Assembly: GCA_019566835.1 (NCBI GenBank)
Contig: GCA_019566835.1_3045.2
Source of the DNA: a phage
Direction: 5' to 3' (one strand)
DNA: 35,772 nucleotides
The translations under genes were made by a program, and so were the position numbers. Shown here piece by piece: positions 90 through 32,952 of the stretch (position 1 is the stretch's first letter; every line of letters begins with the position of its first letter). The notes under the pieces are model-generated. The model was not told the DNA's origin and searched no databases. It saw nothing but the letters and a program-made list of their open reading frames with translations.

Positions 90-3000
90 ATGGCTACTTT
101 AAAACAAATACAATTTAAAAGAAGCAAAACCGCAGGCGCGCGTCCTGCTGCTTCAGTATTAGCCGAAGGTGAATTGGCTATAAACTTAAAAGATAGAACA
201 ATTTTTACTAAAGATGATTCAGGAAATATCATTGACTTGAGCATTTCCACTGGCGGCAATATCAGTGGAAATATCACTCAAACTGGTGATTATTTACAAA
301 ACGGCACGTATAATCTTAATGGAAACCAGTTTGTTTATGCAGGAAAATACATTGAATTTTTACCTAAAACCGCTGGTAATGGTGCGTGGGCAAATCAACA
401 CCTCAATAAAGCTCCTATCTTTACAGATTTAAGTTCAACTACTTCTGTTTCAGAATATCATCCACTCATTAAGCAGCGTTATAAAGATGGGACTTTTTCT
501 GTTGGTACGTTAGTAAACGAAGGAAGTTTTAAAATTCATTATATTAATGAATCGGGAACTTCAAAATATTGGACATTTCGTAGAGATGGTGGATTTGTTG
601 TTGATACAGGAAGTTTGACAGTAACAGATGGAAATATTTCTGCCTCTGGTAATATTAATTCAGCTACTGGGGTAGTTTCTGCTCCGCAGATTAATACAAA
701 GACTATAGTTTTTGATACAAAAGCGTTCGGACAATATGATTCGCAGTCATTAGTTCAATATGTTTATCCTGGAACAGGTGAAGCAAACGGAATCAATTAC
801 CTTCGCAAATTCCGTGCTAAATCTGGTGGTACAATTTATCATGAATTAGCTTCTGCGCAAACCGGAAAAAGTGATGAACTTTCTTGGTGGACTGGTAATA
901 CAGCGGTTAATAAACAAATGGGCCTTCGCAATGATGGGTCTTTAGTACTACGACGTTCACTTGCAATTGGTACAATTACAACAGATGAAAACATCAATAA
1001 CTACGGTTCCACTGGAGCAATGGGCGAATGTTATATAGTTATTGGTGATGCATCAACAGGTTTATCATACAAAAAAACTGGGGTATATGACTTAGTTGCT
1101 AGTGGTCTTTCTGTAGCATCTATTACTCCTGATAGTTTCCGTAGTACGCGCAAAGCGATTTTTGGACGCTCGGAAGACCAAGGCGGTACGTGGCTTCTTC
1201 CTGGTCAAAACTCATCTCTTCTTTCAGTTCGTACTGAAGCTGACCAAAACAATAATGGAGATGGTCAGACACATATTGGCTATAATAGTAATGGTAAATT
1301 TTATCATTATTTTAGAGGCAGAGGAAGAATGGCCATTGGAATGGCCGAAGGACTTATTGTTGAACCAGGAATTTTAGATATTAAAACTGGTTCAAATACA
1401 TTAAGTTTGCGTGCTGATGGTACCGTCGCTTCTGTTCAAACATTAAAGCTTAATAATGGATTATATTTTAATAGCGATGGAACTAACGCTTCTCTAATTT
1501 TTAAAGCAGCTTCAGGTATTGATGGTACTAAACAAATACTTTGGGAAGGTGGTACTCGTGCTGGGCAGAATAAGAGCTATGTAACTGCTAAAGCTTGGGG
1601 AAATTCATTTAATTCATCTGGCGATCGTAATCGTGAAACGGTTTTTGAAGTATCAGATGGACAAGGATATTATTTTTATGCTCAACGCGTAGCTCCTGCA
1701 CCAGGTTCAACAACTGGTGCAGTTCAATTTAGAGTTGCCGGAGCATTATTAACTTCTGGCGGTATTACATCATCTGGTTCTATTGTTACTGAATCTAGCT
1801 TAGTTGCAAATAATGGATTATCTGTAAATGGACAAGCTAAATTTGGTGGAACAGCAAATGCATTAAGAATTTGGAATGCCGAATATGGCGCCATATTCCG
1901 TCGCTCAGAAACAGCATTGCACATTATTCCTACTCTTAAAGACCAAGGAGAAAATGGTGAAATAGGTAATCTTCGTCCATTGAGCATCTCACTTAACAAC
2001 GGTATGGTTCAAATGCGCCATTCTGTCACGTTAGGTGATGATGGTGCAGGCGGTAATATGGTGACGGTTGATAATGATTCTAAAGTTATAGTAATGACGA
2101 CTAATAGCCGTATTAGTCCTAACTTCCGTATGCAAATTGGACAGTCGTCTTATATTGATGTGGAATGTACTGATGCTGTGAGACCTGCTGGAGCCGGTTC
2201 TTTTGCTTCACAGAATAACGAAAACGTTCGCGCTCCGTTCTATATGAATATTGATAGAACAGATACAAGCACTTATGTTCCTATTGTGAAACAAAGATAC
2301 GTGCAAAATAATAGTTGCTATTCTATTGGTACTTTAATTAATGGTGGTAACTTTAGAGTTCATTATCATGAAGGTGGCGATGGCGGTTCTACAGGCGCAA
2401 TTATAAAAGATTTAGGATGGGAATTTAATAAAAACGGTGATTTTTATTCTCCTGGTAAATTAGGCGCTGGAAATATTAGAATAGGTACTGATGGTAATAT
2501 CACGGGTGGTTCTGGTAACTTTGCTAACTTGAATACAACTTTAAACCGTAAAGTTAATTCTGGTTTTATTACTTATGGAGCAACGGCAGGTTGGTACAAG
2601 TTTGCAACAGTAACAATGCCTCAAGCTACATCAACTGTTTCAATTACAGTCACCGGTGGAAATGGATTTAATTCTGGGTCATTTAATCAGTGTGCAATTT
2701 CTGAAATTGTTCTTCGTACAGGAAACAATACTCCTAAAGGATTAAATGCTGTTCTATATAGAAGAGGACTAAATTCATTTAGAGATATTGCTTGGGTTAA
2801 TACATCTGGTGATACATATGACATTTATGTTAATATGGGAACATATGCTAATCAGTTGATATTTAACTATAGTTCTGTTGATAACGCCACAGTTCAAATT
2901 ATTGGCGCATTCAGCTCAGCTCAAAATCCTGTTGATGCATTGCCAGAAACATATGTTAAAGGTCAGGTAGCAGATGTATTGACTAACTTAGTTGATTCTG

Positions 3001-3983: not shown

Positions 3984-4661
3984 ATGGCAATTGTAGGTGT
4001 TCCTGGCTGGATTGGTGAATCTGCCGTGAATGAAACTGGACAACGCTGGATGGATGCTGCAATGAAAGCAGTTCGCGTTTCAGTTCCTGGCTGGATGAGT
4101 TCAATGGCTGGACAATCTAAAGAAGTATATTATAGTGTTGGTGCTAGTAATTCTTATAATAAAGACACACTAATAAATTGGATAAAAGCTCAAGGCAGTA
4201 CTCCTGTTGTTATTACTATTACAGGAAATATTGTTTCTCAATCTACTGGTGTTCCATGCTTAGATTTTCCTAGCTCATTAACTAATGCGTATGTTACCTT
4301 AAATATTAATAGCGGGGTTCATGTATTAGGTCGGGGAGGAAATGGCGGAAGTAACTCTGCTGGTGGAGCAGGAGGAACTGCAATAAATAACGGAATTGGA
4401 ACTCGTTTAAGAATAAACAATAACGGTATTATTGGTGGCGGTGGCGGTGGCGGCGCTGGTGCTAGATACCATCCTTTCCCTCAAATGGATATGATATTTG
4501 GTGGCGGCGGAGGTCGTCCATTTGGCGCTGCTGGCAAATCTTCATATATTCAAGGTGGTACTGGAGGAACTGTTCACTCGGGTGGTGCTGCGGGTAAAGC
4601 TGTTACTGGTAATGCTCCAACTTGGACTAAAGTTGGTACAATATACGGTTCAAGAGTATAA
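3984..4661 (+). CDS. 38: gp38 tail-fibre adhesin, glycine-rich-motif type
   Basis: 225-aa ORF directly downstream of gene 37 with SD AAGGA. C-terminal half holds several glycine-rich motifs (GRGGNGGSNSAGGAGG, GGGGGGGAGA, GGGGGRPFGAAG, GGTGGT, GGAAG) typical of T2/T6-type gp38 adhesins. Confidence 0.8.
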   Translation: MAIVGVPGWIGESAVNETGQRWMDAAMKAVRVSVPGWMSSMAGQSKEVYYSVGASNSYNKDTLINWIKAQGSTPVVITITGNIVSQSTGVPCLDFPSSLTNAYVTLNINSGVHVLGRGGNGGSNSAGGAGGTAINNGIGTRLRINNNGIIGGGGGGGAGARYHPFPQMDMIFGGGGGRPFGAAGKSSYIQGGTGGTVHSGGAAGKAVTGNAPTWTKVGTIYGSRV

Positions 4662-6646: not shown

Positions 6647-7107
6647 TAGTAAAGGTCCTCAGAGTAAAGTTCTTTTTCACTACCACCGCGTTCAATACGC
6701 ACCTGCCCAGCATAAGTTGCAATAATCATTGCTTCTTCACGTGTCCAATAATTACTATATTGGTCAATAAACCCTTGGTCATCATCACAAACTTGTTGAG
6801 TAACTAACTGTGGTTTAACTATATCTAAAACTTCTGCCATGTCCTTAGAATAATGACGAGCGCCTGGAATAATAAGAGTTCGTCCATCTTTTAATTTAAA
6901 ACGGTTGGCTGCGCAGACAATTCGTCGTTGATACTTTTGATTTTCATCCCAATATGCAGTCTGCCAACAGATTTCAGGAACTTCTTTCAGAATATCTTCT
7001 TCTGTGCATTTATAACCATGCGCTTTAAATTTTTGAACAAGACTCTCCGGAGTCTCACGAGATAAAGGAACATTCAGCATTTTTAAACGATTGATAAATG
7101 GGTTCAT
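6646..7107 (-). CDS. Hypothetical protein (arn.x-position ORF)
   Basis: 153-aa ORF; its stop overlaps the downstream start. Confidence 0.65.
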
Positions 7108-7433
7108 TTAAACCATCCTTTAATACGCTGCCACAAAGTTTTCTGCTGAGTTTTGTTAACACCAATTGAGCGAATAACTGGTTGAGATTCCTGGAATTCT
7201 TTATAATCAGCAAGGTAAATTTCGTAAGCTGCATCCGTAAATGAACTTATCGCTGCCATAAAATTATTGCGAATACCTATTGGAGCATCTTTACTGTCAC
7301 GAATAATCATGTATTTACCAGTCTTAATCTTTACAATAGTTCCAAGATAAGCTCCATGGTACCAAATGTCCCACCCCTCTTGAGTGGGTTCTGCACAACG
7401 ACGAAGTTCATTGATAATTTCTAACTTGTTCAT
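7104..7433 (-). CDS. Hypothetical protein (arn.x-position ORF)
   Basis: 109-aa ORF; 4-nt overlap with the next gene. Confidence 0.65.
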
Positions 7434-7443
7434 TATTTATTCC

Positions 7444-8079
7444 TCACAGTTCAGATGCTACAGTGATTACTGCTTCAATGTTTTCTGCCGAGCGTTTAAT
7501 GTCAAGATACACATTACCGTTTTTAGCGATTTTACAAGACATTCCGATATCAGTAAATTTCTGAATATGATGTTCCATCATTTTGTATCCAAAAATTCGC
7601 ATATTTCCATTATTGTTAATTTCAAAATTGCGAATTCCGTGGGTGCGTTTTTCTAAAATAGCGAGATAGTTACTGCGATAAGTTTCAACCTTTTTAAGAA
7701 CAAATCCATTTTCATCTAAAAGTTTTAACATAAAGTCTTTATCTTCTTCCATATCAGAAGTAATCTCGCGAGCTTTACGAGTTGCTCGTTTTTTCAGCAG
7801 TTCAGGAGCGTTTTCCTGTGCATATAAAGTTGCTGCGTTTGAAATAATATCTTGCGCTTCGCCTGTGATGATTAATCCATCACCTGATTTCTCTACCAGG
7901 CCTTTTTTAATCAATACCCCAATATTACTATTAACTACTGCGTTACCTAAATCTGGATGCACCTCACGAACTTCTGCGGCTGTAATGAAATCTTTCTTAG
8001 CAATAGTAATTAAAATCGCAGCAGTTTTTTCATTCAGAACATCGTTAGAAGCTTTGATGATGTAAGTTACTTTAGACAT
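7444..8079 (-). CDS. motA: Middle transcription activator MotA
   Basis: 211-aa ORF, MSKVTYIIKASNDVLNEKTAAILITIAKKDFITAAEVREV...; length and sequence match T4 MotA. Confidence 0.95.
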   Translation of the reverse strand: MSKVTYIIKASNDVLNEKTAAILITIAKKDFITAAEVREVHPDLGNAVVNSNIGVLIKKGLVEKSGDGLIITGEAQDIISNAATLYAQENAPELLKKRATRKAREITSDMEEDKDFMLKLLDENGFVLKKVETYRSNYLAILEKRTHGIRNFEINNNGNMRIFGYKMMEHHIQKFTDIGMSCKIAKNGNVYLDIKRSAENIEAVITVASEL

Positions 8080-8207: not shown

Positions 8208-8357
8208 TTACTGCATGACTGTGATAACTGTCATAATAACACGTTGAATTCCGAACGCAAGAAGACCTCCTGCTACGGCTGGAACAACACCTAAACCCGC
8301 CAGTAAAATGCTACCGGATACTAATGCAGCGCTTGTAATACCTATGAATGGACTCAT
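8208..8357 (-). CDS. Small hydrophobic membrane peptide (49 aa)
   Basis: MSPFIGITSAALVSGSILLAGLGVVPAVAGGLLAFGIQRVIMTVITVMQ. ATG overlaps the gene 52 stop (ATGA) and SD GAGGAA sits inside the 3' end of gene 52. Confidence 0.5.
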   Translation of the reverse strand: MSPFIGITSAALVSGSILLAGLGVVPAVAGGLLAFGIQRVIMTVITVMQ

Positions 8358-9682
8358 TTGATTTCCTCTAAATCTTTAGTGTATTCGGTAACTACATCAG
8401 TAGTTTTCCAATATTCGTTTTCTTCTTTCTTAGCTTTAGCTTCTTCAGCAAGTTTCTTTGCTTCGTCGGAAGTCATATGAAAAATATTCATTCCGACTAG
8501 TTTATCAACATAAGAAGAATACATCTCAATTTTAGAAAGTTCTTCGGTCAGTTCTTTACGAGTTTTACCCTGCACATCAATTTCACCTGAAATTACTTTC
8601 TTAATAAAATGTGCCTTGGCAAAGGCTAAACGAAATGCTGATTCAGTTTCTTTGATTTTGTTATCAATTCGTTTTTGGACATAAGTTTTACGAACTTCAA
8701 CAAAGTCTTTAATTAAATCAACTACGTTATCGTAAACTTGCAGCTTTCCTTTCTCATTAATAACCGTAATATTCTGAGAACGACGCTCAATCAACCCGAA
8801 GTCTTTCATAATTTTTGCATGGCGTTCTTCTTCATTATCGCTCAAAGAATATTCTTTACGGAATTTAACTTTAAAGCCAAAACCATGCTCACCACAAGCA
8901 TCATCCCATGTAATGAAGCCTTTATCTTCAAGTGGGTCTAAGATTTTACTCACATAAGTTTCACGATCATACTTATACGGAATCTCAGTGATATGCATTT
9001 GAGTTCGTGAAGTAAACTTATATGTTCCACGAATTTCATATTGCCCATCAATTTCAACGACTTCACCACGAAATTCTGGGAATTCTACCTTCGGTTTAGT
9101 TACTTTCTTTCCTTGAAGAGCTTGTAGTACAGCTTTCTTGACAGAAGAAACACTATGAGGAAGAATGTAAGTTGCATAACCAGTTGCAATACCGGAAACA
9201 CCATTAAGAAGAACAGTAGGAATAATAGGCAAATAGAAAGCAGGCGGAATGTGTTCTTTATCTTGATGTACCGGAGCATATTCAGTATCTTTATATACGT
9301 TATAGAAATTTTTACTTACGCGAGCAAAAATATAACGACTTGCTGCTGCTTTTTGAACGGTACGAGAACCAAAGTTTCCTTGACCGTCTAACAGAGGAAA
9401 GTTATTATTCCAAGTGTTAGCCATCAAAGCCCCCGCATCTTGTGCAGAGTTTTCACCATGATGATATCCAAGGTCAGCTACACCACCTGCAATAGAAGCT
9501 AGTTTGTGAAACTTATCTTTATTTCCCCGTGCCAAATCAAGAGCTCGAGCAATAACAAATCGTTGAACTGGCTTAAATCCATCAATCATATTTGGAATAG
9601 CACGATTTTCAACCGTGTACATAGCATAAGCCAATGCTTCATTATCAATGATACTTTTTAAATCGCGATTATTCAGTTGCAT
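8354..9682 (-). CDS. 52: DNA topoisomerase II medium subunit (GyrA-like) gp52
   Basis: 442-aa ORF, MQLNNRDLKSIIDNEALAYAMYTVENRAIPNMIDGFKPVQRFV... (GyrA N-terminal breakage-reunion motif); T4 gene 52 position and size. Confidence 0.93.
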   Translation of the reverse strand: MQLNNRDLKSIIDNEALAYAMYTVENRAIPNMIDGFKPVQRFVIARALDLARGNKDKFHKLASIAGGVADLGYHHGENSAQDAGALMANTWNNNFPLLDGQGNFGSRTVQKAAASRYIFARVSKNFYNVYKDTEYAPVHQDKEHIPPAFYLPIIPTVLLNGVSGIATGYATYILPHSVSSVKKAVLQALQGKKVTKPKVEFPEFRGEVVEIDGQYEIRGTYKFTSRTQMHITEIPYKYDRETYVSKILDPLEDKGFITWDDACGEHGFGFKVKFRKEYSLSDNEEERHAKIMKDFGLIERRSQNITVINEKGKLQVYDNVVDLIKDFVEVRKTYVQKRIDNKIKETESAFRLAFAKAHFIKKVISGEIDVQGKTRKELTEELSKIEMYSSYVDKLVGMNIFHMTSDEAKKLAEEAKAKKEENEYWKTTDVVTEYTKDLEEIK

Positions 9683-9686
9683 AAAT

Positions 9687-9827
9687 TTACCATACTAGTG
9701 AATGTAGTGCCATAATAACATCAGAAATGAAAAGCACGACTTGAATTAATCCAAACATTACTCCATAATATAGTGCTATTAATAAAATAGCAAGGGCTAA
9801 TGAATAGCCCAAGATTTTCTTAATCAT
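9687..9827 (-). CDS. Small hydrophobic peptide (46 aa)
   Basis: MIKKILGYSLALAILLIALYYGVMFGLIQVVLFISDVIMALHSLVW, read from the sequence; its start overlaps the stop of the ORF upstream. Confidence 0.35.
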   Translation of the reverse strand: MIKKILGYSLALAILLIALYYGVMFGLIQVVLFISDVIMALHSLVW

Positions 9828-9978
9828 TAGTAGATAACAACACAAATGTTAAATATGCACACATACCCTGAGCTAAAGCTTGCGAAAACACACTGCTGGC
9901 ATCAATACAGATAGTTAAAACACATGCTACTATCCAACAAATAAATGAAATAACTCCTAATAATTTTGCAATATTCAT
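9820..9978 (-). CDS. Small hydrophobic peptide (52 aa), paralog of the 51-aa peptide
   Basis: Start taken at MNIAKLL with SD GAGGAG. Shares the motif SSVFSQALAQG with the neighbouring peptide (SVFLQASAQG). Confidence 0.45.
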   Translation of the reverse strand: MNIAKLLGVISFICWIVACVLTICIDASSVFSQALAQGMCAYLTFVLLSTND

Positions 9979-9988
9979 AATATTCTCC

Positions 9989-10144
9989 TCAACTATTTTT
10001 AGAACCAATGTACGCGAATAATGATAAAATCGCTAATACGCCCTGAGCTGATGCTTGCAAAAATACTGAAGTTTCTCCAGTTATTACTGTTCCGATGCAT
10101 AAAAAGAACCAACAGAAAAAGGCTATACCGTGAACAAATTTCAT
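9989..10144 (-). CDS. Small membrane peptide (51 aa), possibly Ac
   Basis: MKFVHGIAFFCWFFLCIGTVITGETSVFLQASAQGVLAILSLFAYIGSKNS with SD GAGGAAAAT; lies between stp and gene 52 where T4 carries ac. Confidence 0.45.
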   Translation of the reverse strand: MKFVHGIAFFCWFFLCIGTVITGETSVFLQASAQGVLAILSLFAYIGSKNS

Positions 10145-10151
10145 ATTTTCC

Positions 10152-10232
10152 TCACTGGCGTCCGAAGACGCCTTTGGTTTTAAGATTGTTACGATAGAAC
10201 TGCATCACGTGTTCGTTGTGGAAATTACTCAT
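10152..10232 (-). CDS. stp: Stp peptide (suppressor of pseT; 26 aa)
   Basis: Translation [26 protein letters not shown] matches the T4 Stp peptide as I recall it. The start overlaps the ndd stop (TAATG). Confidence 0.9.
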
Positions 10233-10690
10233 TAATATGCCTGCAAAACGAATTTAAAGTTATCAGCCAACATACGGTTCATTTCTTCAAGTGTTTGATA
10301 CTCAGAATGATGATTACGAGTAAACGCCAAAGCTAACTGACCTTTACCAAATCCTGTCGTCAGAGGTTTCATCTTAGAAGCAGGCAGATAAAATACTGTG
10401 TATGGAACATTGTTATTTGCAATAGTACGTGCAAGCTGAGACCGACGTTGACGAATATGACTTAGAACTGCACTGAATCCTTGCTTAGAACGCTGATTAC
10501 CTACATAAAATCGTGCAGACACGCATGGATTACTAAATGGACGACCATCTAATTTACTTACTAAAAAGTAAAATCCAGGTTTAGATAAAATATCTTTATG
10601 CGGAGTTCCCAAAAACCATTCACCACCCTTGATTGTACCAATAACAGTAGCACCTGCGTTGTTCAGATCAGTAACAGTCATATATTTCAT
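10232..10690 (-). CDS. ndd: Nucleoid disruption protein Ndd
   Basis: Start taken at [33 protein letters not shown] (SD GAGGAA), giving 152 aa; T4 Ndd sequence and position. Confidence 0.85.
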
Positions 10691-10966: not shown

Positions 10967-10974
10967 AATTCACC

Positions 10975-11082
10975 TCAAGGAGTATAAAATCCAAATGCAG
11001 TTGTTGACCATCCCATCCAATACGGAAAATTTGCACCAATGTAAAACATAAGAATATAAAACCAAATGTTTAGTAAATTCAT
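10975..11082 (-). CDS. Tiny hydrophobic peptide (35 aa)
   Basis: MNLLNIWFYILMFYIGANFPYWMGWSTTAFGFYTP. ATG overlaps the stop of the 65-aa ORF (TGATG). Confidence 0.35.
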   Translation of the reverse strand: MNLLNIWFYILMFYIGANFPYWMGWSTTAFGFYTP

Positions 11083-11279
11083 CATTTTACACCATTCCAA
11101 ATTGTTTCAACTACGGATTTTAAACCATTTTGATGAATATCCATTCCGACTACCGCCATCAAATAGATTCCAACTACAACTGAACCTAAGGCAAAAATCA
11201 GCATGAAAATGAATAAAGCCGGAAAAATATTATCGAAAAACCATTCAATAAATGTAAAAGCATTGCGTTTACGCTTCAT
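11082..11279 (-). CDS. Small membrane protein (65 aa)
   Basis: Start taken at MKRKRNAF with SD GAGGAAAAT; one predicted transmembrane helix. Confidence 0.55.
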   Translation of the reverse strand: MKRKRNAFTFIEWFFDNIFPALFIFMLIFALGSVVVGIYLMAVVGMDIHQNGLKSVVETIWNGVK

Positions 11280-11286
11280 ATTTTCC

Positions 11287-11400
11287 TCACATAAATCCAA
11301 AGTAAACGTTTAATACATCAATCATTAAAACGATTGGGAATATACTCAAAACTATTAGTATTATAACTACATTCCATATAGCTTTAATAATCTTTTTCAT
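11287..11400 (-). CDS. Tiny membrane peptide (37 aa)
   Basis: MKKIIKAIWNVVIILIVLSIFPIVLMIDVLNVYFGFM with SD GGAGGAA; sits directly downstream of an early promoter. Confidence 0.5.
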   Translation of the reverse strand: MKKIIKAIWNVVIILIVLSIFPIVLMIDVLNVYFGFM

Positions 11401-11428
11401 TTTCTGTTCCTCCGTAGTTGATAGGGTA

Positions 11429-11458
11429 ATAGTACCACGGAAGAACAGTCTTGTAAAC
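11429..11458 (-). promoter_or_regulatory. T4-type early promoter
   Basis: Minus strand reads GTTTAC, 18 nt, GTGG-TACTAT. Confidence 0.6.
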
Positions 11459-11465
11459 AACTTTT

Positions 11466-11564
11466 TTAAAAATATTCGTAATAAATGTGAATACCAACTA
11501 CTACCGCTGAAACCTGTGCAACCCACCATGCACAAGCAATAAGTACAGAATTTAAAATTTTCAT
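11466..11564 (-). CDS. Tiny hydrophobic peptide (32 aa), candidate
   Basis: MKILNSVLIACAWWVAQVSAVVVGIHIYYEYF with SD GAGGT; overlaps the promoter UP region. Confidence 0.25.
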   Translation of the reverse strand: MKILNSVLIACAWWVAQVSAVVVGIHIYYEYF

Positions 11565-11647
11565 AATAACCTCATTACAAAAGTAAATGTTAAACAAATT
11601 ACTGGAATACTAATTAACCAAACAAAACACCACCATAGTGAACTCAT
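11561..11647 (-). CDS. Tiny hydrophobic peptide (28 aa), candidate
   Basis: MSSLWWCFVWLISIPVICLTFTFVMRLL; ATGA overlaps at both ends. Confidence 0.25.
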   Translation of the reverse strand: MSSLWWCFVWLISIPVICLTFTFVMRLL

Positions 11648-11907
11648 AGCTCAATCTCAGCGATTTTCATTTCATTACTATTAATAGCCGCTTTAAGACT
11701 ATCTGAAAGAATTACATTCCAGTGGTCATTCATATGACCATTAACTAAGCGTGTAATTTCTTCAGGAGTTGAAAAATAAGGCTGATCAGACTCCCAATGC
11801 GATAATCCTAAGCGAGTATAAATCATGCCTTCATCATCGCTAGAATATTCAACTGACACAAACTCATCAGTTATTTTATGTTTAGCGTAATAAAATTTAA
11901 ATTTCAT
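11644..11907 (-). CDS. Hypothetical protein (87 aa)
   Basis: Start taken at MKFKFYYAKHK with SD GGAGAA, directly downstream of an early promoter. Confidence 0.6.
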   Translation of the reverse strand: MKFKFYYAKHKITDEFVSVEYSSDDEGMIYTRLGLSHWESDQPYFSTPEEITRLVNGHMNDHWNVILSDSLKAAINSNEMKIAEIEL

Positions 11908-12837: not shown

Positions 12838-13774
12838 ATTTAAATTGTTCAGTAACGTCTTCAACCACTTCGTATTGGCAGGTACGCATTTTAGCATCAT
12901 TGTAATCAATCGGAATTGATACTACATCACGTGGATGTACTTTAACTTTTACAACTCGACTGGTTGAACTGCCAAAGTGACGAATATAAGATTTAGAACA
13001 TACATGCAGACCACGAGAACAAGTTTGTGTATCATCGTCATTCACACGAGTACGCGGCATTTTAACTACTTTACCAGGACTGTTATCAAAGGTGTTTGAG
13101 TGACAGTCAAAGTAGTTGTCACGAACTACTTTCCAAGCATAGAAGTAACCATCTTCGGTGATTTCAATATCGTTTGCTACCAAGAAATCAAAGAGTCGAG
13201 ATACCGCTTTTTGGCTTGGGTTTTCCAGCAGATTTTCCAAGAACGGAAAATAAAATTCAAAATTTTCGCCTTTTTCCATCGAGTCAAGAATACGATCAAC
13301 CAGACCAGACCGTAATTCGATATTTTGATAGAACAAGCTTCCGCCTTCAATTCGAACATCACCGGAAATATATTTTTCAACAGCGCGACGAACATTAATT
13401 TTTTGTGCAGCTTCTTCCAGCTTATCCGCTACAAGCAGATTAAGAATTTCCTGGAAGTTTGAATGAGTATTAGGAGTTGCGTTATAAGTTACACCGTCAA
13501 CAGTAATTGAAATGAATTTTTTAGATGCATTCCAAATAATGTCAGATTTAGCAACTGGAGCAATAACTTCATCGCTATTAACTTTAACTGTAATATCACC
13601 GCTAATAGTAACTTTAGGGCGTTTAGCTTCTTCAGCATTTTTCAAAACACGACGAATTGTGTCAACCGATACACCTTGCCAATCAGCCAATTCCTGTTGG
13701 GTGTAATTACCACTTGAATACAGTTTAACAATTTCAGCTTGTTCGTTTTTGGTCAGGCATTTAATATTGTACAT
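12836..13774 (-). CDS. rIIB: rIIB protein
   Basis: 312-aa ORF, MYNIKCLTKNEQAEIVKLYSSGNYTQQELADWQGVSVDTIRRVL...; T4 rIIB length and position. Confidence 0.9.
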   Translation of the reverse strand: MYNIKCLTKNEQAEIVKLYSSGNYTQQELADWQGVSVDTIRRVLKNAEEAKRPKVTISGDITVKVNSDEVIAPVAKSDIIWNASKKFISITVDGVTYNATPNTHSNFQEILNLLVADKLEEAAQKINVRRAVEKYISGDVRIEGGSLFYQNIELRSGLVDRILDSMEKGENFEFYFPFLENLLENPSQKAVSRLFDFLVANDIEITEDGYFYAWKVVRDNYFDCHSNTFDNSPGKVVKMPRTRVNDDDTQTCSRGLHVCSKSYIRHFGSSTSRVVKVKVHPRDVVSIPIDYNDAKMRTCQYEVVEDVTEQFK

Positions 13775-16202: not shown

Positions 16203-16232
16203 ATTATACCACATCCTTGTGGTAAAGTAAAC
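16203..16232 (-). promoter_or_regulatory. T4-type early promoter for the rIIA.1-rIIA-rIIB unit
   Basis: Minus strand reads GTTTAC, 18 nt, GTGG-TATAAT; the -35 element overlaps the gene 39 stop codon. Confidence 0.65.
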
Positions 16233-18049
16233 TACTGGCTCATCCATTCTTTACGAAGGTCAGCATTATCTCCCATGAGCATTTCAAAAAGCTCTTTCCA
16301 GTTCTCAGGAAGTTTAACAACATCATATACTGGATTTTGAATCATTTCACGATATTCAGATTTTTCCAAAGAGCCAAGTCCTTTAATATAACGGATGCTA
16401 TGTTTAGGTAGAGCATCTTTGGCACTCTCATATTCAGCGACTGTATAAAACCATTCTTGTTTTTTACCGACCTGAGCGATGATTACAGGAGTTTTGACAA
16501 AGCGAATTCGTCCTTGCTCAAACAATTCTGGCCAATTACTAAAAAATCCGAGCAGAGAAGGATAAATGCTTCCTAGACCATCATGGTCAGCATCAGTCAT
16601 AATAGCAATATTGCGATAATTCATGTTTTCAGCTTTTTCACCAAGAACTAATCCAGTGATTGCGCAAATATCAAATAGTTCTTTGTTTTTAAGCATATCT
16701 GCATAAGACATACCCCAACTGTTGAGAACTTTACCACGCAATGGATAACCACCATGAAGTTCTTTATCACGAACATCAATAAGATATCCGATAGCAGAAT
16801 CACCCTCAGTCAAGAAAAGAGTAGTATCAGCATCTTTACCGCACAGATTAGCTTTAATATGTTTATGAACCTTTGCCTTAGAAGCCTTTTTAGCTGCTTT
16901 AGTTTCAGCTGCTTTTTCTGCTGCCAATTTACGAGCTAGTGCAGCTTCAATAATTGGCATTAAAATTGCTTCATTATTTAAAATAGCGCGTGAAATCTTT
17001 TTAGCGTCAAGTTGAATATGACTACGGATTTCACCAAATGGAGAAGTCAAACGCTCTTTAGTTTGAGAATCAAATCGCATGTTTTTCATATCACGAACAA
17101 ACATAACGATAGTCAAACATTCTTTAACGCGTGCTTTAGTTACATCAATTTTGAACTTACGTTTGATTTGTGGAATAAGGTCTTCACAAATATCATCCAT
17201 AACACAGTCAATGTGATGGCCACCATTCTTAGTATGAATGTTATTGACGTATGTTAATTGACGAAATCCATCCGGTGAACGACCAACCGCAATAGAACAA
17301 TTTTCTTGTTCTTGAACAATAGCATGTTCATCATACTGTAGTGCATATTTCTTAAAATTGCCCTGAACCTTTTTACCATTAAAGGTAAATTGAATATCAG
17401 GATAAACAACAGCAAGTGTCTGGAGACGATCTAGTGTAATGTCAAGATAAACTTGGGACAGCTCATTAGTTTCAAATGACATAAAATCTGGAATGAAAGT
17501 AACACGAGTTCCTTTCCATTTTCCAGGAATAGTTTCCCAGGATTTATTTTCCATGCCATTTGAACAACGAACTACAATATTATTTTGACCATCGCCAGTT
17601 TCACCGACAAACATCACAGAAAAAATGTTAGTTAAACTAGAACCAACACCATTCATACCACCGGTGACACGTTCTTTATCATCACCAAAGTTACCACCCG
17701 CTTTTGGAATAGTCCAAGCAGCAACTGGACCAGGAATTTCTTCACCGGTAGGTGTTTTAACCATCGCTTGTGGAATACCACGACCGTTATCTTCAACTGT
17801 TACTTGATTGTTTTTAATAGTAACATTAATTTTATTTGCGAATTTAAACTTAGTACGAATACCTTCATCTACTGAGTTATCGATAATTTCATCAATAAGC
17901 TTAACAAGACCAGGTACATACTGAACACTTTCCCATTTACCAAACAGAAAGCGCTCATGCATTTCATTAGCAGAAGAGCCAATGTACATGCCACTACGCT
18001 TTTTGATATGTTCAATATCGCTCAGAATTTTAATTTCATTCTTAATCAT
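16232..18049 (-). CDS. 39: DNA topoisomerase II large subunit (GyrB-like) gp39, uninterrupted
   Basis: 605 aa from the ATG at 18049 (SD GAGGATAAG; the ORF-track start at 18052 is GTG). N-terminal GHKL ATPase motifs (DEIIDNSVDEG, EDNGRGIP) and a C-terminal Toprim-like region sit in one frame. Confidence 0.92.
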   Translation of the reverse strand: MIKNEIKILSDIEHIKKRSGMYIGSSANEMHERFLFGKWESVQYVPGLVKLIDEIIDNSVDEGIRTKFKFANKINVTIKNNQVTVEDNGRGIPQAMVKTPTGEEIPGPVAAWTIPKAGGNFGDDKERVTGGMNGVGSSLTNIFSVMFVGETGDGQNNIVVRCSNGMENKSWETIPGKWKGTRVTFIPDFMSFETNELSQVYLDITLDRLQTLAVVYPDIQFTFNGKKVQGNFKKYALQYDEHAIVQEQENCSIAVGRSPDGFRQLTYVNNIHTKNGGHHIDCVMDDICEDLIPQIKRKFKIDVTKARVKECLTIVMFVRDMKNMRFDSQTKERLTSPFGEIRSHIQLDAKKISRAILNNEAILMPIIEAALARKLAAEKAAETKAAKKASKAKVHKHIKANLCGKDADTTLFLTEGDSAIGYLIDVRDKELHGGYPLRGKVLNSWGMSYADMLKNKELFDICAITGLVLGEKAENMNYRNIAIMTDADHDGLGSIYPSLLGFFSNWPELFEQGRIRFVKTPVIIAQVGKKQEWFYTVAEYESAKDALPKHSIRYIKGLGSLEKSEYREMIQNPVYDVVKLPENWKELFEMLMGDNADLRKEWMSQ

Positions 18050-18076
18050 CACTTATCCTCGTTTGGTTTCGGGAAT

Positions 18077-27834: not shown

Positions 27835-27990
27835 TTATTTCCTTTTGCCTACTAATGGACCGTCAGGAATTTTGTTTTCCTGAATGTATTTCTCATTTTC
27901 TTCCATCATTTTACTACCGATTTTAAGAAGCAAATCCATTGCTTCATTTGCTTTAGCCTTTGCCTCTTCTAACGTCATATCTTTGGTCAT
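27835..27990 (-). CDS. Small hypothetical protein (51 aa)
   Basis: [51 protein letters not shown]; ATGA overlap with the upstream stop. Confidence 0.4.
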
Positions 27991-28190
27991 GATTTATCAC
28001 CATAGATGTCTCTCATCAATTTAAGCGCTGAGCGTTCTAATTTCTTTTCTTTCTCAGCACTAATCATTGATTTCATCCATTCTTCTGACTCGTTCTGCAT
28101 TTCTTTATTTGCCTGTTCAACCCAACCATCATCAATATACATTGAGTTTGGTCTATTGAACCATTCAAGCATTTTCTTCAGAACTTTCAT
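27987..28190 (-). CDS. Hypothetical protein (67 aa)
   Basis: ORF with a weak SD; overlaps the upstream gene by 26 nt. Confidence 0.45.
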
Positions 28191-28650
28191 TTGTTTTACC
28201 TAAAACGATAGTATGGACAGCGTCAAATTCATGAATTTTTAGCAAATTAGGATTTAAATTATTCCATAAAGAGGTAATAAAATATGATAGCGCACTTTCG
28301 TCCGTAATTATAAATTTATTTCCTTTATCTATTTTCCAATCATATATTGAATCGTATGAATAGAAGGATAACGGTTTATTATTATAGTATGCTTCAGCAA
28401 CATCAATATAGTTAGATTTAGTAAATGCTTGAATTGCCATAAATGGAGAATTTTGTACAGTTTCAATAATTCCGATCTTTTTAAGTTTTATTTCAACATC
28501 TTCTGGAACTGGCATTGAAATAAAATCTTCTACTAGATACATGTCATTGTCATATCTTTTATCAATCATTACTGCTACTGTAATTGGAACATCCTTGACA
28601 AACGCCATACTAATACTATTGATAGACATTTCAAACAAAATCGCTTCCAT
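28165..28650 (-). CDS. Hypothetical protein (161 aa)
   Basis: Start taken at [10 protein letters not shown] with SD GAGGAAAATT. Confidence 0.65.
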
Positions 28651-28658
28651 AATTTTCC

Positions 28659-29000
28659 TCAATCACAAGATGTAGATGAACAACTAGAATCACAAGAACT
28701 TCCACATGAATCGCCCGTCCATACATGAACAGGAACATTGGTGTCATATGAATCAGAACTAGACTGTGTATTCTGTGCATTAGATGATGTAGTAGGTACT
28801 GACCAGCGCCAAGGATTTTTATAATATTCTTGGGCTTCTTCATAAGTCATAGTAACTGCTTCTACTGTTCCATCTCCCATATAAACATACTCAACTACAG
28901 TTAAAGGAAGGTAGTCATTTGAAATAGGAACTACACCTTCTCCCGGAGTTGTAGAGAAAAAATCTGTAAAGAAATTTTTAAACCAATTAAATATAAACAT
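28659..29000 (-). CDS. Hypothetical protein with cysteine/serine-rich C-terminal tail (113 aa)
   Basis: N-terminal aromatic hydrophobic segment [15 protein letters not shown]; C-terminus [18 protein letters not shown]. Confidence 0.6.
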
Positions 29001-32363: not shown

Positions 32364-32952
32364 AAACTTTTACTTTAGGCTGTTCTTCAAACGGTAATTC
32401 ATATCCACATATTACAATTTTGTGATCGATACCAAAATACACAGAAGCAATATTATTAATATTATTTTCAGTGAAATCTAAATCAACATCAATATCTTTT
32501 TGACTAACGCTCAAAGGATAATTAATACGAATAATTCGATTATCTTTAACAAAGATTCCACCGACATACTCTGTGCTGCGTTTAAAGTTTACACGTTTCC
32601 TAAATGAAAAATATTCAGGTTCTTTATGGGCTCGACTCATAGGGCTTAAAGTGTATTCCGAATATGAAATATCAAATCCTACACCTTCAATATGAGCCAA
32701 AGTGTCATGATTAAACCAATTATAATCGTATGCCAAATCCATTAAATTGTAATATGTGAAAGGCACCGGATTAACATCATATGTTGTACCTTTAAAATCT
32801 GCCCAGGCAACGATTTCGTTATCTTTAACAATTACAAAAATTGTGCCAATAAGATATCCACGGTTATTTTCATCAGGCGTTATATTATAACATTGTGCAT
32901 CAGGAAATTTACCGTATTTAAACGGTGGATTTTTGTGCATATAATAAATCAT
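32320..32952 (-). CDS. Hypothetical protein (210 aa; 61.2-position ORF)
   Basis: ORF ending SIDDQIFNAFMNKG. Confidence 0.7.
   Translation of the reverse strand: MIYYMHKNPPFKYGKFPDAQCYNITPDENNRGYLIGTIFVIVKDNEIVAWADFKGTTYDVNPVPFTYYNLMDLAYDYNWFNHDTLAHIEGVGFDISYSEYTLSPMSRAHKEPEYFSFRKRVNFKRSTEYVGGIFVKDNRIIRINYPLSVSQKDIDVDLDFTENNINNIASVYFGIDHKIVICGYELPFEEQPKVKVSIDDQIFNAFMNKG

Follow-up and report, generated by a model that had tools for sequence, protein, structure and literature searches.

Small hydrophobic genes in the gene 52 operon

The window, a 35,772-nucleotide stretch of phage DNA, is a segment of a Tequatrovirus (T4-like) genome, and Tequatrovirus Aplg8 matches it at 98.4% identity across 3.4 kb. 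In the region investigated, all genes lie on the minus strand and follow the coding-strand order ndd-stp-acB-ac-52.1-52-motA.1-terminator, which constitutes one early operon. An earlier note, made from the sequence alone, had pointed to four ORFs of this region as a cluster of small hydrophobic peptides. We found all four at the positions given there, each beginning with ATG on the minus strand, with lengths of 49, 46, 52, and 51 codons (8208-8357, 9687-9827, 9820-9978, and 9989-10144, respectively). The features of the operon, in coding order, are as follows.

10232..10690, minus strand: ndd, with which the large genes of the unit begin; stop overlapping the start of stp (TAATG)
10152..10232, minus strand: stp, encoding the 26-aa activator of the host PrrC anticodon nuclease; identical to T4 Stp
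10140..10156, minus strand: upstream ribosome-binding-site repeat AGTGAGGAAAATATGAA; holds the stp stop, a Shine-Dalgarno sequence, and the acB start
9989..10144, minus strand: acB, a 51-aa second Ac-family gene; Ac paralogue (E 6e-10; phrog_2501) that T4 lacks
9974..9994, minus strand: downstream ribosome-binding-site repeat AGTTGAGGAGAATATTATGAA; holds the acB stop, the ac Shine-Dalgarno sequence, and the ac start
9820..9978, minus strand: ac, the 52-aa Ac protein of the T4 type, in its known +Thr variant (T4 Ac plus one Thr; phrog_2501)
9687..9827, minus strand: 52.1, a 46-aa hydrophobic peptide of DUF7396; two substitutions relative to T4 gp52.1
8354..9682, minus strand: gene 52, encoding the 442-aa medium subunit of DNA topoisomerase II; large gene to which the peptides are coupled
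8208..8357, minus strand: motA.1, a 49-aa glycine-rich hydrophobic peptide; identical to T4 NP_049874
8182..8203, minus strand: intrinsic terminator closing the gene 52 transcription unit; 9-bp stem with 6 GC pairs, then TTTTTTATTT, 5 nt past the motA.1 stop

The hydrophobic character and the translation signals ascribed to the four ORFs were both confirmed. Their GRAVY values range from 1.15 to 1.80, while Stp is hydrophilic and stands outside this set. The start of motA.1 shares the letters ATGA with the stop of gene 52 and is served by the Shine-Dalgarno sequence GAGGAA. The 52.1 gene starts 8 nt inside the 3' end of ac (AATGATTAA), without a Shine-Dalgarno sequence, and stops 4 nt ahead of the gene 52 ATG. 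The remaining two have Shine-Dalgarno sequences of their own, GAGGAG for ac and GAGGAA for acB. The terminator is annotated at the same element in phage Aplg8, and Stp was recognized by Pfam PF08133 with an E of 2e-21 (75.3 bits, cut-off 25).

Nine ATG-started ORFs of 40-60 aa with a GRAVY of at least 1.1 were counted in the window, compared to a chance expectation of 0.7 +/- 0.7 from 100 Markov-1 simulations. Among these nine, only motA.1, 52.1, ac, and acB are neither embedded in nor antisense to larger genes. The dN/dS values were 0.17 for the Ac family, 0.15 for gp52.1, and 0.07 for MotA.1, compared to 0.9-2.2 in shifted frames; all four ORFs are under purifying selection. The reading frames are kept across Tequatrovirus, Mosigvirus, Gaprivervirus, Jiaodavirus, and further loci. 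Conservation of the frames in related phages, on which the earlier note had made the reality of these ORFs depend, is thus observed together with selection to maintain the proteins.

In published T4 RNA-seq data, motA.1, 52.1, ac, and stp are classed as early transcripts (PMC9697503, Table S2). MotA.1, gp52.1, Ac, and Stp were all undetected in T4 proteomics, although such methods routinely miss tiny hydrophobic peptides. A regular-expression scan found no MotA-box middle promoters upstream, and a generic sigma-70 scan returned 21 matches, barely higher than the 17 expected from shuffled sequence; any promoter assignment for the unit is one that we infer.

Two members of the Ac family in tandem

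The suggestion that one of the ORFs might be the Ac membrane protein proved right. The ORF at 9820-9978 is T4 Ac (NP_049877; phrog_2501; PF26944) with one additional Thr near the C-terminus; in phage PP01, this form of the protein has been reported to work (doi 10.1101/2025.06.30.662393). The neighboring ORF at 9989-10144, which we refer to as acB, is its paralogue, as had been proposed: the two proteins share 17/40 identities (43%, E 6e-10) and the same PHROG. Both match phrog_2501 over the full 50-position profile, Ac with an E of 3.7e-25 and acB with an E of 4.9e-26. A Pfam profile scan of Ac and acB gave no match for either, and homologues of acB carry the precomputed Pfam assignment PF26944. 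In phage Aplg8 and others, acB is annotated as 'acridine resistance protein'.

The motif SVFxQAxAQG is common to both paralogues, as the earlier note had seen, and it is also invariant across the Ac-family alignment. In acB numbering, the invariant positions of this stretch are S26, V27, F28, Q30, A33, Q34, and G35, and G35 aligns with G38 of Ac. Every invariant residue of the family is retained in acB. Both genes sit in the slot typical of the family, which lies upstream of gene 52 and has stp or ndd on one side and 52.1 on the other. The two paralogues do not flank stp, contrary to what had been described; they adjoin each other, both immediately downstream of it.

We compared acB with T4 Ac and with the Ac-like genes of other phages. 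It resembles T4 Ac in family profile, length, two-helix prediction, its place in the stp/52.1 slot, and the invariant W, SVF, Q, AQG, and A, but differs from it in being 43% identical and in having the loop TGET, compared to IDAS in T4 Ac. Much closer, at 71-77% identity, are the genes named 'ac' in RB51, RB68, RB32, and RB33 and the Ac-like genes of Mosigvirus, Gaprivervirus, and Jiaodavirus, all of which have the same TGETSVFxQAxAQG core and the same position as acB. A search of the Ac-family profile for remote homologues beyond the T-even phages, against 1.84 billion representatives, returned only eight matches, six of them 48-52 aa long.

A small family of paralogues exists, as claimed, although it is limited to two of the four ORFs. 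MotA.1 and gp52.1 are separate families; hhalign linked neither of them to Ac, nor the one to the other (probability < 2%). The possibility that all four peptides form one family was also evaluated through an all-against-all hhalign comparison of the nine small-ORF families found in the slot, and was rejected, with probabilities below 6%.

The acB cassette and its distribution

Together with a 10-nt spacer, acB makes up a 166-bp cassette (9979-10144) that is missing from T4. Nucleotide alignment with T4, RB51, and RB32 showed that the insert is flanked by the repeats TGAGGAAAATATGAA and TGAGGAGAATATTATGAA. In T4, the sequence of the upstream repeat (10140..10156) runs straight into ac. T4 has a single Ac-family gene, whereas the window has two in tandem. 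In RB51, RB68, RB32, RB33, and the Mosigvirus, Gaprivervirus, and Jiaodavirus phages compared above, an acB-type gene is the sole Ac-family member and its stop overlaps the 52.1 start; in the window, acB is followed by a T4-type ac, which has taken over that overlap.

Across phage records, DNA of the T4-type ac was found in 460, the acB type in 77, and the tandem junction in 51. The tandem acB-ac pair is present in ~10% of Tequatrovirus records, and in RB51, RB32, RB68, and BECP11 the ac slot holds a gene of the acB type alone. The tandem would represent either an old duplication or the recombinational stacking of two alleles, delimited by the repeated ribosome-binding sites. T4 may have retained one Ac type alone, and RB51 and RB32 the other.

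Predicted helices and membrane topology

All four peptides had been described as single-helix. This agrees with the AlphaFold2 model of gp52.1, which consists of one helix spanning residues 2-45 (pLDDT 96.7), but not with the models of the Ac pair, for which two helices are predicted. For acB, AlphaFold2 placed a helix at residues 2-22, a loop at 23-26 (TGET), and a second helix at 27-50, at moderate confidence (pLDDT 75.8, pTM 0.40; built on a 9-sequence alignment). A published ESMFold model of Ac also has two helices (doi 10.1101/2025.06.30.662393). The Ac family comprises proteins of ~50 residues with two predicted hydrophobic helices joined by a short acidic loop. The two members in the window may each be inserted in the inner membrane as a hairpin whose N- and C-termini both face the cytoplasm.

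Given the hydropathy and the predicted helices, membrane targeting of the peptides is plausible; we found no localization data for the four peptides. When the four peptides were scanned against the Pfam, PHROGs, and NCBIfam profiles, every match was to a family of unknown function or was sub-threshold noise. The PHROG matches among them were phrog_3487, phrog_3595, and phrog_2501.

Activity of Ac and its likely extension to acB

Expression of Ac sensitizes cells to acriflavine by 3 logs and is not toxic alone (bioRxiv 10.1101/2025.06.30.662393). In the same study, ac deletion mutants and a G38R mutant were acriflavine-resistant, viable counts barely shifted when Ac was expressed (1.5e9 vs 2.3e9 CFU/ml), and T4 without ac plated normally when the dye was absent. 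Older work interpreted the Ac phenotype as increased uptake. Blockage of AcrAB-TolC by Ac was proposed in 10.1101/2025.06.30.662393, and the proposal is repeated in PMC13250531. The gene ac is the classical acriflavine-sensitivity gene: in cells that are infected, or that express it, its product causes acridines to accumulate and makes the cells sensitive to them. On the mechanism currently proposed, Ac may do so by interfering with AcrAB-TolC efflux. Given that acB keeps every invariant residue, including the glycine altered in G38R, its function is most likely equivalent in kind to that of Ac.

Ac may be compared with AcrZ of E. coli, a small membrane protein of 49 aa that tunes efflux by binding to AcrB (PMC7267776). 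AcrZ and Ac are similar in size, and action on the same pump through intramembrane contacts has been proposed for Ac; the likeness is an analogy in manner of working only. AcrZ is a single helix and enhances resistance to some drugs, whereas Ac has two predicted helices and reduces resistance. No likeness to AcrZ was found by sequence, as the Ac-family profile had no relative at E <= 10 among PDB chains, a set that includes AcrZ entries, or by fold, as a Foldseek search of the acB model against the PDB gave 0 matches.

gp52.1 and MotA.1 at the two ends of gene 52

Both gp52.1 and MotA.1 correspond to named T4 proteins. T4 gp52.1 (DUF7396, PF24129) is the same gene in the same position, with the same gene 52 overlaps and two substitutions, and the peptide of the window matches the Pfam family at 80.1 bits (cut-off 27) over positions 1-46 of 46. 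T4 MotA.1 (PF26886, phrog_3487) is likewise the same gene, with the same position and gene 52 overlap and 0 substitutions; the match to phrog_3487 has an E of 2.2e-31, and homologues carry the precomputed Pfam assignment PF26886. Among the related loci, 38 have 52.1, and in each of them gene 52 follows it directly. In a 12-sequence alignment, 23 of its 46 positions are invariant, including the terminal W46. An RNA element for gene 52 translation was considered as the reason for the invariant 3' half of 52.1 and rejected: synonymous change there was 0.23, compared to 0.26 elsewhere. Equal synonymous change in the conserved half and elsewhere indicates that the constraint acts on the protein.

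Phage with the GT7-like deletion, which takes out ac and shortens 52.1, is viable (PMC9712115), and these two genes are dispensable in the laboratory. A literature search covering motA.1, gp52.1, 'acridine resistance protein', and T4 ribosome profiling found nothing on function or on the tandem copy. The two peptides belong to unrelated families that appear to be translationally coupled to the start and the stop of gene 52, and they are probably small inner-membrane accessory proteins. In other genera, unrelated small hydrophobic ORFs occupy both slots around gene 52.

Weighing of alternative explanations

We consider it likely that the four ORFs are genuine early T4-type genes, namely an Ac pair and the unrelated gp52.1 and MotA.1, co-transcribed with gene 52. 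An unlikely alternative for the latter two is that 52.1 and motA.1 act as leader and trailer devices for the translational coupling of gene 52, such that being translated matters and the peptide does not. This would fit the layout, in which the gene 52 ATG lacks a good Shine-Dalgarno sequence and follows the 52.1 stop by 4 nt, 52.1 itself starts inside ac without one, and the motA.1 start overlaps the gene 52 stop. It would also fit the unrelated small ORFs at both positions in other genera, as if position outweighed sequence. These replacing ORFs are all hydrophobic, however, which pure coupling would not need, and the selection on gp52.1 and MotA.1 (dN/dS 0.15 and 0.07) is strong. The half of gp52.1 positions that are invariant, with synonymous change even along the gene, and the viability of phage in which the GT7-like deletion truncates 52.1 also argue against a role in coupling alone.

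For acB, we evaluated whether it could be a redundant, decaying ac duplicate without a function of its own that has merely not yet been deleted. It is missing in T4 and about 410 other records, the short repeats bounding the cassette make its loss easy, and in BCH953P4 the acB match falls into two pieces, which suggests a frameshift. Nevertheless, an intact ORF with 95% identity or more occurs in 48 records at the protein level and 50 at the DNA level, acB has a strong Shine-Dalgarno sequence of its own, and all invariant residues are kept in a family with a dN/dS of 0.17. RB51, RB32, RB68, and BECP11 have no gene in the ac slot other than one of the acB type, and this type is also the one that other genera carry. 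The acB type is therefore the more widespread of the two rather than a degenerate copy, and we regard decay as improbable.

The earlier note had further raised the possibility of host-takeover or superinfection peptides. A broader version of this idea, in which the peptides are membrane-damaging or exclusion factors (superinfection exclusion, holin-like proteins, or depolarizing toxins) acting in host takeover, appears very improbable. The peptides are small, hydrophobic, and early, the region is rich in host-directed genes (ndd, stp, denB), and the glycine-richness of MotA.1 might be compared to that of some pore-forming peptides. Against this, Ac expression hardly alters viable counts, T4 without ac plates normally without dye, and the Pfam, PHROGs, and NCBIfam scans linked none of the four peptides to an annotated family of holins, exclusion proteins, or toxins, with no support in the literature searched. 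Host takeover fits only loosely, in that Ac raises the acriflavine sensitivity of the host while not being toxic alone. As for superinfection, nothing in this analysis or in the literature searched ties any of the four peptides to exclusion. In the closest record, the annotation of sp, the known exclusion gene of T4, lies outside this region, at ~32650-32940 in window terms.

Significance

Reading the four ORFs as an Ac pair with the unrelated gp52.1 and MotA.1 makes the finding real but ordinary, as they amount to already catalogued T4-type genes plus a second copy of the ac family. As a discovery the cluster carries little weight, because each of the four genes already has an annotation in public phage records and three have T4 gene names. 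The ac gene serves as a selectable and counter-selectable marker through acriflavine resistance. If acB is redundant with ac, a single knockout in phages with the tandem may not give resistance, and spontaneous resistant mutants should be far rarer than in T4. If the Ac family truly blocks AcrAB-TolC, the alleles of T4, acB and the RB phages, Mosigvirus, and Jiaodavirus would provide a ready set of efflux-inhibiting peptides, which could bear on phage-antibiotic synergy.

A more far-reaching joint proposal is that the Ac family serves to inhibit transporters in the host inner membrane, for instance RND efflux pumps, by means of two-helix proteins whose divergent types (T4-type and acB-type) differ in their targets or hosts, and that the unrelated small membrane peptides coupled to both ends of gene 52 across Tevenvirinae genera reflect a functional requirement, such as membrane tethering of the topoisomerase or replication complex, and more than a place where small genes gather. 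We hold this combination to be rather unlikely. If it were true, a phage with the tandem would put two pumps out of action or be equipped for two host backgrounds. That unrelated small membrane peptides keep to the same positions around gene 52 is in itself a modest comparative-genomics observation.

Locus layout and chance expectation

Many Tequatrovirus (T4-like) genomes match the 3.4 kb of sequence spanning the small ORFs at 96-98% identity, with phage Aplg8 as the top match (98.4%). Comparison with the T4 and Aplg8 annotations gave the following gene order:

10232-10690, minus: ndd
10152-10232, minus: stp
9989-10144, minus: acB, the extra Ac-family ORF
9820-9978, minus: ac
9687-9827, minus: 52.1
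8354-9682, minus: gene 52
8208-8357, minus: motA.1
8203-8182, minus: strong terminator
7444-8079, minus: motA

The four hydrophobic ORFs described in the earlier note (motA.1, 52.1, ac and acB) lie where it placed them; all start with ATG, encode 49, 46, 52 and 51 residues, and have GRAVY values of 1.15-1.80. Their translation signals are also as described: the motA.1 start and the gene 52 stop overlap in ATGA, motA.1 has the Shine-Dalgarno sequence GAGGAA, ac and acB are preceded by GAGGAG and GAGGAA, and 52.1 starts 8 nt inside ac without a Shine-Dalgarno. The two paralogues do not, as had been proposed, flank stp; they are adjacent, and both lie downstream of it.

The window has nine ATG ORFs that are 40-60 aa long and reach GRAVY >= 1.1, compared with 0.7 +/- 0.7 in Markov-1 simulations. 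Only the four have slots of their own, since the other five (42-59 codons each) lie within larger genes or antisense to them and are most likely by-products of AT-rich composition rather than genes:

9100-9279, minus: inside gene 52
13489-13638, minus: rIIB region
16648-16776, minus: inside gene 39
27884-28024, plus: in another frame within a large gene, or antisense to one
28541-28675, plus: in another frame within a large gene, or antisense to one

Identities and predicted structure

MotA.1 is identical to T4 NP_049874, gp52.1 carries two substitutions relative to T4 and matches Pfam DUF7396 (80 bits), and 9820-9978 is, as had been suspected, T4 Ac carrying an additional Thr, three codons ahead of the stop. 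The same variant in phage PP01 is reported to be fully acriflavine-sensitive (bioRxiv 10.1101/2025.06.30.662393). Every feature that defines membership in Ac, DUF7396 or MotA.1 and could be tested was found, and precomputed Pfam labels on database homologues (PF26886, PF24129, PF26944) indicate that the MotA.1, gp52.1 and Ac families are already catalogued. The finding is real, but its genes are already annotated in public records.

The ac and acB products are paralogous (17/40 identities, E 6e-10), and both span phrog_2501 end to end (E ~1e-25). Profile-profile comparison found no relation among the Ac, gp52.1 and MotA.1 families, so the small family suggested earlier is limited to the Ac pair. 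No holin, exclusion or toxin family match was found among the four peptides.

The description of the peptides as single-helix holds for gp52.1, predicted as one continuous helix (residues 2-45; pLDDT 96.7), and fails for the Ac pair. In the AlphaFold2 model of acB, helix 2-22 and helix 27-50 are joined by a TGET loop (pLDDT 75.8), and a published ESMFold model of Ac has two helices joined at D26-A27 (bioRxiv 10.1101/2025.06.30.662393). Because both proteins have Lys near the two termini and Glu or Asp in the loop, their sequences suggest a hairpin with both ends cytoplasmic.

Several annotation errors in public records for this region have been passed on through gene names: MotA.1 homologues are called "transcriptional regulator" in Aplg8 and "flagellar motor protein MotA" in a record from Shigella flexneri, several phages have Ndd down as "naphthalene 1,2-dioxygenase", and the intact stp ORF is left without annotation in Aplg8 and others.

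Selection, expression and dispensability

The earlier note named a lack of reading-frame conservation in related phages among the results that would refute it; the frames are kept across genera. Pairwise Nei-Gojobori dN/dS at moderate divergence was 0.17 (Ac), 0.15 (gp52.1) and 0.07 (MotA.1), against 0.9-2.2 in a shifted-frame control on the same alignment columns. An RNA element behind the near-invariant 3' half of 52.1 was rejected, as synonymous change there is on par with the 5' half (0.23 vs 0.26); the constraint thus acts on the peptide. In T4, RNA-seq places the motA.1, 52.1, ac and stp transcripts in the early class, and shotgun proteomics detected none of the predicted products MotA.1, gp52.1, Ac and Stp (PMC9697503, Table S2), as might be expected of peptides so small and hydrophobic. 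With a re-created GT7-like deletion (T4 165,257-168,510), in which ac and stp are lost and 52.1 is cut short, the phage is viable (PMC9712115).

Ac and acriflavine

The acriflavine phenotype of Ac is established: on acriflavine, wild-type T4 fails to plate, while deletion, frameshift and G38R mutants do plate (bioRxiv 10.1101/2025.06.30.662393). Expressed in E. coli, Ac is not toxic alone (1.5e9 vs 2.3e9 CFU/ml), lowers acriflavine survival by three logs, and also reduces ampicillin tolerance (same preprint). Its authors propose that Ac inserts into the inner membrane and that AcrAB-TolC is thereby blocked, a blockage restated as an assumption in a 2026 PNAS paper; older work interpreted the same phenotype as greater dye uptake. 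G38 lies within the AQG of the motif common to both copies and aligns to the invariant G35 of acB, from which we infer that acB would act in the same way. An AcrZ-like mode of action for the pair would be an analogy only: AcrZ differs in helix count and has the opposite effect on resistance, and Ac-type proteins showed no similarity to it by sequence or fold.

The tandem Ac-family genes

In T4, stp is followed directly by ac, without acB between them. Nucleotide alignment with T4, RB51 and RB32 showed that acB and its spacer form a 166-bp cassette. Its insertion point lies immediately downstream of the shared stp-proximal ribosome-binding site, and two near-identical repeats, AGTGAGGAAAATATGAA and AGTTGAGGAGAATATTATGAA, border it. 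The sole gene in the ac slot of RB51, RB32 and BECP11 is of acB type (71-77% identical), as is the single Ac-family gene of Mosigvirus, Gaprivervirus and Jiaodavirus (core TGETSVFxQAxAQG). T4-type Ac is therefore the divergent branch, seen only in Tequatrovirus.

Records by configuration in the phage collection, including GenBank/RefSeq duplicates:

T4-type ac DNA: 460 records
acB-type DNA: 77 records, 50 of them at >= 95% identity
acB-ac tandem junction: 51 records

About one-tenth of Tequatrovirus records therefore carry the tandem, about 26 have the acB type only, and the remainder have the T4 type only. The data fit an old duplication followed by alternative losses via the short repeats, and they also fit two alleles stacked by unequal recombination. 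Discussion of a tandem ac paralogue was not found in the literature searched; dozens of public records contain the paralogue and give it a label, many with both ORFs named "acridine resistance protein".

The minus-strand mRNA at 10157-10172 (GGCGUC-UUCG-GACGCC) forms a C(UUCG)G tetraloop hairpin within the last stp codons, directly before the next gene's Shine-Dalgarno. It is kept in T4, RB51 and RB32 by nucleotide alignment, and our terminator scan also caught it, as a stem-loop on the opposite strand. The hairpin may act by stabilising the mRNA or by modulating how the ac-type gene downstream is translated.

Positional conservation around gene 52

Across 41 loci around gp52 homologues, small hydrophobic ORFs were almost always present both in the ndd-to-52 interval and overlapping the gene 52 stop. 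They belong to at least nine mutually unrelated sequence families (pairwise hhalign probabilities all < 6%), of which gp52.1 is the most widely kept (38 loci). The tight coupling of the gp52.1 and MotA.1 genes to the gene 52 start and stop is conserved. A C-terminal "-ND" is common to Ac-type proteins and one other family, and is imposed by the overlap with the 52.1 start (AATGATTAA). Examples from other Tevenvirinae genera are:

~2400-3000 and 4320-4470 (loci L007-L043), gp52 on plus: slots holding unrelated small hydrophobic ORFs
slot around gene 52: 53-aa MVILVFIELIMAIVCSVCFF... family
directly after ndd: 57-aa family
overlapping the gp52 stop: 34-aa MSLGVEFLLLCIF... family

This positional conservation without homology is the sole aspect that adds slightly to what is already annotated. 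It could have a function, or could simply reflect a tolerant hyperplastic region.

Upstream of ndd, at about 10970-11650 on the minus strand, there is a second series of tiny hydrophobic ORFs, which corresponds to ndd.2 through ndd.5 of Aplg8 and T4, the same sort of small membrane-peptide cluster as that around gene 52. It includes:

11561-11647, minus: MSSLWWCFVWLISIPVICLTFTFVMRLL
11466-11597, minus: tiny hydrophobic ORF

Just upstream of motA, a 109-aa ORF (7104-7433, minus) labelled "anti-restriction nuclease" in Aplg8 stands where T4 has the 68-aa arn.4, making the arn-motA interval unlike T4's. The large topoisomerase subunit is a single unbroken 606-aa ORF (16232-18052, minus) that represents the fused 39+60 form of the gene and lacks the split, gene 60 bypass and mobA insertion of T4; in Aplg8, the closest record, the matching stretch carries no annotated CDS.
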